A stretch of DNA of 64,000 nt from an uncultured delta proteobacterium (GTDB lineage: Bacteria; Myxococcota_A; Polyangia; Polyangiales; Polyangiaceae): contig CAWAIF010000003.1 in NCBI GenBank assembly GCA_963782055.1, positions 3,680,001-3,744,000 on the forward strand, read 5' to 3'. The notes under the pieces are model-generated. The model was not told the DNA's origin. It saw only the letters and a program-made list of their open reading frames with translations, and did no database searches. The stretch's first letter is position 1. Every line of letters begins with the position of its first letter. Positions 20,301-57,487 of this stretch are shown here, one piece after another. The position numbers and the translations under genes are program-made.

Positions 20301-20424
20301 GTGGGGTTGGGGCTGGGGTCGGGGTCGGGGTTGGGGGCTGGGGTCGGGGTCGGGGTTGGGGTCAGGGGTCGGGGCTGGGGTCGGGGTCGGGGTTGGGGTC
20401 AGGGCTGGGGTCGGGGTCGGGGCT
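20301..20424. repeat. G-rich hexamer microsatellite (GGGGTC/GGGGTT/GGGGCT)n
   Basis: About 20 degenerate units read directly. Confidence 0.95.
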
Positions 20425-20444: not shown

Positions 20445-20614
20445 CGCCGCGCCCAGGGAATGGGCGGACGCGAGGGGTCGCGTCTTGGTCGGTCACGCCT
20501 TTGCGCGCAGGATTCCTGCCAGCGCTGGGCGCGGTGTGTGTACGATGCACGTATCGCACTGTCATGAATCCTGCGCGATGGGGGGGCATGACCGACCAAG
20601 ACACGACCCCTCGC
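20445..20614 (+). other. Structured leader D: long hairpin overlapping the start codon
   Basis: 20470-20499 pairs with 20585-20614 (28/30); 20504-20515 pairs with 20566-20577 (12/12). Confidence 0.8.
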
Positions 20615-20941: not shown

Positions 20942-20967
20942 CACGCTCGCTCGCGCCTTTCGCTCAC

Positions 20968-21184
20968 GCGCTCGCGCCCGCGCCCGCGCTCGCCCTCGCG
21001 CCCGCGCTCGCCCTCGCGCCCGCCCTCGCGCCCGCCCTCGCGCCCGCGCTCGCCCTCGCGCCCGCCCTCGCGCCCGCCCTCGCGCCCGCGCTCGCCCTCG
21101 CGCCCGCCCTCGCCCTCGCGCCCGCGGCACCTGGGCTGGGGCGAGGGTCGGGGCTGGGGTCGGGGCTGGGATCGGGGGATGGGG
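20968..21184. repeat. C-rich hexamer tract (GCGCCC/GCCCTC/GCGCTC)n followed by short G-rich (GGGGCT/GGGGTC)n tract
   Basis: Read directly; junction CACCTGGGCTGGGGCGAGGGTCGGGG. Confidence 0.95.
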
Positions 21185-21246: not shown

Positions 21247-21570
21247 TCAGTGGCCGCCGACCAGACGCACCAGCGTGCCGAGCACGTGATCGAACCGCCC
21301 GCGCAGCTCGGGGTCGAGCTCCTCCACGTACCCGAGCGCCGAGGCGACCTCGAAACACGAGAGCACCTCGCGCAGCGACCCCAGCGCGTTGTGATAGCGC
21401 GCCTTCCGGTTGCGACCCTGCGAGTACATGCCCTCGCCCACGTTCAGCGGCCCGCTCGCCAGCGCCCTGCGACACTGCCGAGCCAGATCCGGATCGTGCC
21501 TCTCGAGCTGCCGCACCATCGGCGCCAGCGCACGCACCAGTTCGAGCAACACCGGGTAGATTCGAAGCAT
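21247..21570 (-). CDS. Four-helix-bundle protein, copy A
   Basis: MLRIYPVLLELV...DPDLARQCRRALASGPLNVGEG...ARYHNALGSLRE; AAGGAG RBS. Confidence 0.88.
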   Translation of the reverse strand: MLRIYPVLLELVRALAPMVRQLERHDPDLARQCRRALASGPLNVGEGMYSQGRNRKARYHNALGSLREVLSCFEVASALGYVEELDPELRGRFDHVLGTLVRLVGGH

Positions 21571-21772
21571 CGAGCGACTCCTTGTTCGCGCCCGCGCCCG
21601 CTGCGCGGGGGCACCCGCCCAACCCCGCCGCGCGCAGGAGTCCGCAAGGCTGCGAGCGACAGCGAGCACCGCCCGGAGCCGCGCGCAGGGCGCGAAGCGC
21701 CCGAGCACGGCGAGGACGGCCCCGGCCTTGCGGACTCCGAGCACGGCGGGAGCATGCCCTCCCCCGAGCGAG
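21571..21772 (-). ncRNA. Conserved structured leader A (RNA or ssDNA element)
   Basis: Homologous to 57001-57162 and 58042-58242; perfect 14-bp stem 21637-21650/21725-21738. Confidence 0.65.
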
Positions 21773-57162: not shown

Positions 57163-57487
57163 ATGTTGCGTATCTATCCTGTGTTGCTGGAGCTCGTGCG
57201 GACGCTGGCACCTCTCGTGCGGGAGCTAGAGCGGCATGATCCAGAATCTCGCGCGGCAGTGCCGGCGGGCGCTGGCGAGCGCACCGCTCAACGTGGCGGA
57301 GGGAATGTACTCGCAGGGGCGCAACCGGAGGGCGCGCTACCACAACGCGCTCGGCTCCCTGCGGGAGGTGCTGGCGTGCTTCGAGGTGGCGGCGGCGCTC
57401 GGCTACTTGCCCGGGCTCGAGGACGGGCTGCGGGACCGCGTGGATCACGTGCTCGGCACGCTGGTCCGCCTCGTCGGCGCGCGATGA
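57163..57487 (+). pseudogene. Four-helix-bundle protein copy B with a +1 frameshift near 57245
   Basis: MLRIYPVLLELVRTLAPLVRELERHDP, then LARQCRRALASAPLNVAEG in a shifted frame; 325 nt versus 324 nt for copy A. Confidence 0.85.

Follow-up and report, generated by a model that had tools for sequence, protein, structure and literature searches.

A hairpin leader with split sigma54-type boxes before two multicopy gene families of Polyangiales: a candidate single-strand promoter

ORF D, which encodes a 117-aa four-helix-bundle protein in the 64,000-nt stretch of DNA analysed here (the window), is preceded by a leader that is a real, order-wide and modular element. The leader folds into a long hairpin of two stems, both of which covary, and it is shared by the genes of two families. 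We slightly favour the reading that the leader is an Frpo-like sigma54-type promoter, which would be assembled only in the single-stranded template strand of the gene, with occlusion of the start codon as a second layer. The initial annotation had noticed the hairpin over the start codon and had offered three guesses, namely translational occlusion, a double-strand RNase substrate reminiscent of intervening sequences, and a structure acting on the opposite strand. The last of these is the best supported, and the acting structure is most likely DNA and not RNA.

Architecture, conservation and distribution of the leader

The features of the leader and its surroundings, in window coordinates, are as follows.

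20302..20423, no strand assigned: GGGGTC-type hexamer repeat tract between the upstream AAA_33 gene and the leader
20445..20456, plus strand: claimed pseudoknot partner of 20525-20536, present in this copy, not conserved, judged to be chance
20470..20499, no strand assigned: left arm of the outer stem, which mirrors the start region and, in the bottom-strand hairpin, would be the non-template partner from about -2 to +29
20500..20503, no strand assigned: internal loop between the stems, short side
20504..20525, minus strand: left arm of the inner stem, carrying a minus-strand sigma54-type box from 20520; GGCA in this copy
20526..20555, no strand assigned: variable loop, conserved in neither length nor sequence
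20556..20577, plus strand: right arm of the inner stem, with a sigma54-type box from 20561, GTCA (T at -24), 27 nt 5' of the ATG
20578..20584, plus strand: internal loop, long side; predicted place of the transcription bubble, taking the bubble position outlined in PMC7057263
20585..20614, plus strand: right arm of the outer stem, with the predicted start site near 20586, the mismatched ATG at 20588 and the first nine codons
20588..20941, plus strand: ORF D, 117-aa four-helix-bundle protein (PF05635, TIGR02436, like Xcc0516, PDB 2gsc)
20967..21177, no strand assigned: two more tracts of simple repeats, separating ORF D from the convergent gene
21247..21570, minus strand: convergent partner, a four-helix-bundle gene of 107 aa, the leader of which differs from that of ORF D

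When the pairings given in the initial annotation were recomputed, 20470-20499 and 20585-20614 indeed proved reverse-complementary at 28 of 30 positions, the latter covering the ATG and the first nine codons, and the inner 12-bp stem joining 20504-20515 with 20566-20577 paired perfectly. Beyond these 12 bp the inner stem extended to 20525/20556 with three mismatches. On either strand, none of 200 shuffles folded as well as the region itself (z -7.35 for the sense and -10.97 for the antisense strand). The two mismatches of the outer stem were C-A on the sense strand, at 20481/20603 and 20496/20588, as had been annotated; the antisense G-U opposite the ATG, however, was one option among several, as the mirror codon was ATG in 33, GTG in 28, AGG in 19, CTG in 14 and another in 4 of the 98 anchored leaders, which are related loci forming 39 clusters. 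A pseudoknot or switch between 20445-20456 and 20525-20536 had also been suggested. The pairing is possible in this copy (11 Watson-Crick pairs and 1 G-U), but it is not conserved: it was gone in the second copy, on contig C2, and the best such pairing over 96 loci had a mean of 6.78 nt, compared with 6.77 nt in mismatched controls.

The profile matches of ORF D were PF05635 (E 3e-10), TIGR02436 (E 4e-11) and Xcc0516/2gsc (E 2e-6). Compared with 12 homologues from other genomes, the altered share was 0.12-0.19 at amino-acid-changing sites and 0.48-0.66 at silent sites. Since the former is far below the latter, ORF D is under purifying selection and the protein is kept. The records of its relatives were those of Polyangiaceae, Labilithrix, Myxococcales and Anaeromyxobacter, and a comparison of ORF D with 72,556 plasmids gave no match.

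An inverted repeat across the start codon was found in 43 of 49 loci homologous to ORF D (score of at least 12); five of the other six had no ATG usable by the script and one had no repeat. The homologs of ORF D thus keep complementarity between leader and start region, the loss of which would have refuted the initial annotation. The homologous loci showed two designs, a long D-like one with an inner stem and a short-loop one over the ribosome-binding site and AUG, the latter often with a separate hairpin upstream. Thirty-one leaders from both gene families were aligned, and a covariance model was built from them. In this alignment both stems covaried, with 84.8% of the cells paired, compared with 62.7% in shuffles and 32-44% in slid controls; the two-sided changes numbered 308 against 98.7 in shuffles, although the relatives are not independent. 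Genome-wide, 53 long inverted repeats were detected, of which 40 passed low-complexity filtering; 20 of the 40 were this leader, and the covariance model matched the same 20 places. Of these copies, 17 preceded genes of the DUF559 endonuclease family, intact or as remnants, and three preceded D-type genes. The leader is thus not restricted to copy D but stands before an unrelated gene family as well.

The covariance model and the anchors were derived from the counted features, and the match counts, which lean towards those features, were 62 of 150 genomes of the family, 13 of 127 genomes from outside the family but within the order, and 3 of 150 from the phylum at large. Downstream of 92 non-redundant matches, which came from 89 loci and are part of the matches listed, there were 56 four-helix genes, 29 DUF559 genes and 7 genes that were cut or broken. 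Among the matches examined, only the four-helix (PF05635) and DUF559 families followed the leader. No transposase adjoined the classified matches, and around 16 DUF559 copies there was neither a consistent target duplication nor a sharp common end. No empty site was found among the AAA_33 orthologues in same-genus genomes, which have other neighbours. Six matches to the right-arm pattern were obtained in viral contigs, where they opened short unrelated frames.

Eighteen of the 20 leader copies lay on the 7.0-Mb dif-bearing contig. A dif-like site is located at C3:3558741, where the GC skew and the KOPS direction switch, and the window lies 120 kb beyond it. With respect to replication, 10 leaders were head-on and 8 co-oriented, and thus no link to direction was seen. 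A convergent partner gene was present at 29 of 49 D-type loci, and most partners had a hairpin of their own, so that either strand would carry one usable unit.

Several further observations were made on the neighbouring genes. In the second D copy, a 1516-bp insertion sequence (C3:2531903-2533418), which we take to be IS66-like, lies in the outer stem and separates the leader from the gene; 14 full copies of it are present in the genome. Two four-helix copies, at window 57236-57250 and in the C3:6183489 region, are frameshifted at the same gene position. At L104, L132 and L133 (G156) the four-helix genes are paired head to head, each with its own leader and with repeats between them. An A-C-type leader at window 21571-21760 (minus strand) carries a second motif, GYGCTCGG ... 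CCTGCGCG with T-N-C loops, which also occurs upstream of DUF559 leaders and has no split box.

Sigma54-type boxes and the geometry of the fold

Judged by its sequence, each arm of the inner stem holds a sigma54-type box; the two boxes are mirror images, and each usually deviates from the host consensus by a single base. The sigma54 consensus is given as yTGGCACGrnnnTTGCw in the part of PMC12754779 that treats it. The gene-side arm has the pattern G-T-C-A-Y-G-N4-Y-T-K-C-G-C, the first G of which (20561) is taken as offset 0; the pattern of the mirror arm, read on the opposite strand, is G-G-C-G-S-G-N4-K-T-K-C-G-C. At -25/-24 the gene-side arm of the 98 leaders had GT in 90, GG in 7 and GA in 1, whereas the mirror arm had GG in all 98. 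The 92 model matches gave the same picture: G-G-C on the left in 92 of 92, T in 83 and G in 8 at -24 of the right arm, and A in 92 at -22, where the mirror side had G in 75. The mirror box was GGCG in 87 of 98 leaders and the normal GGCA in 10, including this copy. Altogether the GTCA/GGCG pair was found in 81 of 98, and 17 departed from the split pattern. Among the short-loop loci, four had a fully normal gene-side box and several had the spacing shifted by 1-2 nt.

The gene-side box started 26-27 nt before the ATG in 89 of the 98 anchored leaders. In this genome, GGCA-N7-TGC peaks 26-28 nt before the ATG, with 18, 68 and 27 occurrences compared with mostly 1-9 elsewhere. Half of the 115 host matches belong to one 57-copy family; without that family, GGCA-N7-TGC-W was still found 39 times against 6.9 expected. 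The GT form at the host promoter distance was found 0 times against 0.7 expected, compared with 39 for the GG form. The gene-side box is thus correctly placed, but one of its bases is not used by the hosts, and the right-arm motif was rejected as the promoter of a host regulon, as no host gene has it at that distance. In a looser hairpin scan, 15 of the 16 GTCA matches were these elements. According to the relevant part of PMC12096077, wild-type sigma54 of E. coli prefers GG, and an R456L change is needed for a GT preference. In 6 of 6 genomes checked, rpoN was a single copy with a normal RpoN box and both arginines; hence a second, GT-reading sigma54 was discarded as well.

In the -12 box, the -13 G was present in 60 of 98 leaders (T in 23, C in 15), and the loss of this G is not repaired by folding because both arms change together; host support for the T and C forms was little (3 vs 2.5 and 7 vs 3.5). 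The -12 C was kept in 97 of 98. At -11, 97 of 98 leaders had G, whereas the hosts prefer A or T. The GGCG form of the mirror box is weakly tolerated by the hosts (30 vs 20.5).

Near-leaderless sigma54-type promoters are common before host genes, for example universal-stress and response-regulator genes. The 57-copy family is a third multicopy small-gene family, presumably MarR-like, and its members (e.g., at C3:1345895 and C2:429901) have a fully normal sigma54-type box 26-28 nt before the ATG, together with an upstream hairpin of their own and a C-rich mirror tract.

When folded as DNA, the bottom strand was predicted to be paired to offset 15-16, and open at 17-21, with pairing resuming at 23-24 and reaching about 50 (median end +26). 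The predicted fold would thus be a duplex through the boxes, with a loop at the predicted -8 to -4 and about 26 bp of duplex downstream of the predicted start. According to PMC7057263, activators open 5-6 bp, and the bubble of sigma54 extends from -12 to +1.

The AUG lay within the stem in 120 of 146 distinct leaders, and the other 26 had no ATG at offsets 24-30. In 22 of the 146, the box, loop and outer stem were at the usual offsets and the gene started at 59-76, beyond the stem; in these long-leader variants a ribosome-binding site preceded the start, and by eye it was covered in about 12 and accessible in about 10. The remaining 4 of the 26 were weak or reverse-read. Mismatches at offsets 26-30 were found in 21 of 24 scored variants with no AUG there and in 86 of 113 leaderless ones, and those at offsets 33-37 in 1 of 24 and 16 of 113, respectively. 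Since the geometry and the mismatch cluster persist without an AUG there, the outer stem is measured from the box and not from the codon. Moreover, because 22 loci keep the geometry with the start codon outside the stem, burying the AUG is not the core purpose of the leader, and the translational occlusion guessed initially may be a side effect of it. Where the AUG does lie in the stem, its pair was broken in 24 of 39 clusters, compared with 9 of 190 other A positions. The long-leader variants L070, L160, L172, L183, L193 and their kin have an arm at offsets 25-56, directly following the predicted start, that is itself a small palindrome; in the RNA it is predicted to form a hairpin at the 5' end, before the ribosome-binding site.

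Several properties of the stems point to DNA. Of 1666 outer-stem cells, 1558 (93.5%) were Watson-Crick and 16 (1%) were sense-strand G-U. The bottom strand was the more stable one in 95 of 98 leaders by DNA energies and in 71 of 98 by RNA energies. In the related short-loop hairpins, the bottom strand had a C-GNA-G end in 19 of 27, a motif that PMC13037366, in the part concerned, describes as an extra-stable DNA mini-hairpin; UNCG RNA tetraloops were rejected for these hairpins since the register fits triloops. The outer-stem mismatches were C-A in 18 cases against 2 T-G, and A-C in 5 against 4 G-T, although this C-A excess is no proof of the strand because base composition, together with GC-biased change confined to the left arm, would already produce it.

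The single-strand promoter reading and its rivals

We compared four settings, namely the duplex read rightward, the duplex read leftward, the top-strand hairpin and the bottom-strand hairpin. Provided that sigma54 reads the G at -24 on the non-template strand and the T at -22 on the template strand, only the bottom-strand hairpin has both bases (81 of 98 leaders). Its template leads into the ORF. On the favoured reading, the template (bottom) strand of the gene, when single-stranded, would fold back on itself into a complete promoter. The left arm would act as the non-template strand and supply the -24 G missing from the gene-side box; the T opposite -22, which the mirror box lacks, would come from the gene-side arm. 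The unpaired loop would play the part of a bubble that is already partly open, and the outer stem of 25-30 bp that of the downstream duplex required by the polymerase. In ordinary duplex DNA the gene-side box would be off, and in most copies a read-through RNA would additionally bury the start. In short-loop loci the occlusion is real, because the second stem always covers the ribosome-binding site and the AUG in the transcript.

If sigma54 reads the leader in this way, the promoter may fire without its activator, and DNA uptake or transfer would presumably be the source of the single strands. The uptake proteins ComEC and DprA were found, yet 10 of 14 control genomes have them too, so that their presence gives weak support. 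The fuller proposal is a portable sigma54 promoter that works in single-stranded DNA only, with a split -24 box and a pre-opened bubble, that needs no activator, fires briefly on cell entry, and serves two chromosomal multicopy families; this we put forward tentatively and with more doubt than belief. According to the portions of PMC7057263, PMC10083551 and PMC2715252 that deal with it, wild-type sigma54 depends on an activator ATPase, and the work with pre-opened templates has used bypass mutants. The need for an activator, the -13 G in only 60 of 98 leaders and the G at -11 count against the single-strand promoter, as do the normal gene-side GG (7/98), the normal mirror GGCA (10/98), the normal boxes and shifted spacings of some short-loop loci, and the negative results on replication direction, transposases, target duplications and empty sites. 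In a literature search confined to top-ranked results and few subscription journals, we found no sigma54-type or chromosomal multicopy promoter of single-stranded DNA, nor this leader.

It is unlikely, in our estimate, that the leader is a deliberately weak sigma54-type promoter of duplex DNA, from which a leaderless or short-leader mRNA without the left arm is made while the mirror arm insulates the gene against read-through RNA. Such an arrangement would fit the AUG lying in the stem in 120 of 146 leaders, with the ribosome-binding site covered in about 12 more, and the short-loop forms that cover both signals, and it has precedents in IS200-type control and sigma54-promoter insulation, as far as these are set out in PMC4513863 and bioRxiv 10.1101/086108. 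The upstream host gene was co-oriented in 38 of 52 classifiable loci (46 of 98 were unclassifiable); however, this is near the background of 241 of 403 (60%), or 12 of 19 in this genome, and an enrichment for read-through was therefore rejected. Moreover, both signals are free at about 10 loci, the AUG pair is preferentially broken, and insulation gives no account of the invariant mirror G-G-C opposite the mismatch, the fixed place of the loop and the scarcity of G-U. The strand-asymmetric mismatches and GNA loops could also suit a bottom-strand hairpin that is a handle by which the cassette is moved or copied, either a recognition or cutting site for a nuclease or transposase acting in trans or a signal at which polymerase would make no more than a short primer for second-strand synthesis, with the likeness to a promoter secondary. 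Multicopy genes in unrelated flanks and the endonuclease-family domain of DUF559 speak for such a handle, and Frpo has also been described as a primer source, going by a title cited in PMC11541004. Nevertheless, in the matches examined the hairpin always stood at promoter distance from the start codon or 5' leader, never alone and never at both ends, no target duplication or sharp common end was seen, and no transposase adjoined the classified matches; we regard a handle as distinctly improbable.

The antisense RNA folds better than the sense RNA (z -10.97; 71/98), and convergent partner genes would supply such RNA; the functional molecule might thus be an antisense-strand RNA or a long RNA duplex that RNase III cuts, in the manner of the ORF-bearing intervening sequences of rRNA, the ORF family of which in 23S rRNA is the same protein family (PMC4990558, in the part that describes it). 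This is very unlikely. The element lies outside rRNA, between protein genes, and its stem does not bracket the ORF; a search of Rfam with the leader gave two weak microRNA matches far under the cut-off and nothing else; the triloops and the Watson-Crick purity fit DNA better; and the match to the host promoter spacing would be left unexplained. The intervening-sequence role suggested in the initial annotation is thus not borne out. The least probable reading, in our view, is that in duplex DNA the mirror box acts as a sigma54 promoter directed leftwards, producing a small RNA or blocking incoming polymerase, or that the segment inverts or converts to restore a gene-side GGCA. The GG of the mirror box in 98 of 98 leaders, its GGCA in 10 of 98 including this copy, the weak host tolerance of GGCG and the gene-side GGCA in 7 of 98 would be in keeping with it, and this copy may fire leftwards in duplex DNA because its mirror side has the normal GGCA. 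Inversion, however, was discarded, as none of the 92 matches was flipped; in addition, the gene-side A at -22 is invariant while the mirror has G in 75, and the length of the mirror frame is not conserved (4 to 360 codons). Two DNA sequencing runs with a small share gave scattered pieces and no joints, and thus spoke neither for nor against it.

If the leader is a single-strand promoter, sigma54 would be switchable by DNA shape alone, and the leader would be a natural counterpart of the pre-opened templates of the laboratory. It would also be the first testable clue to when the widespread and unexplained PF05635 four-helix and DUF559 genes are expressed, which would be in a single-stranded phase and not during growth.

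Comparison with known systems

With the intervening sequences of 23S rRNA (S23p, PF05635), as portrayed in part of PMC4990558, the leader and its gene have in common the protein family, long stems and the expectation of little or no steady-state translation. In contrast to these, the leader is outside rRNA, has a stem at the 5' end only and is common to DUF559 genes, so that only the protein family is really shared. The 5' stem-loop of IS200 tnpA and the insulators of sigma54 promoters, in the aspects covered by the sources given above, resemble the leader in that an internal inverted repeat hides the start signals when the RNA has both arms. However, the leader has no transposase and includes 22 variants with the AUG outside the stem, although the two overlap in most copies; furthermore, its AUG pair is selectively broken and its promoter-like mismatched bases are invariant.

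The leader shares with sigma54 (RpoN) promoters the G-x-C-A-Y-G ... T-x-C pattern with the right spacing and a host-like distance from the ATG. It differs from them by the gene-side T at -24 in about nine of ten leaders, the -13 G in 60 of 98, the G at -11 and the mirror copy upstream. The known single-strand promoters are of the sigma70 type and belong to the leading regions of plasmids. In Frpo, the folding of single-stranded DNA restores -35/-10 boxes, as recounted in sections of PMC9849209 and PMC11541004, and in the Frpo/ssi elements of conjugative plasmid leading regions, as far as those sections describe them, a long imperfect inverted repeat before small genes folds in single-stranded DNA into a mimic of a duplex promoter. 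The predicted single-stranded stem-loop of our leader is likewise upstream of the gene and on the template strand. Its boxes, however, are of the sigma54 type (-24/-12) and not -35/-10, and no TTGACA/TATAAT-like conservation was seen in the leader alignment. Unlike Frpo/ssi, the leader is chromosomal and multicopy and stands before PF05635 and DUF559 genes instead of in a plasmid leading region; it also has a loop built in at the predicted position of the bubble, and its promoter activity is a prediction.
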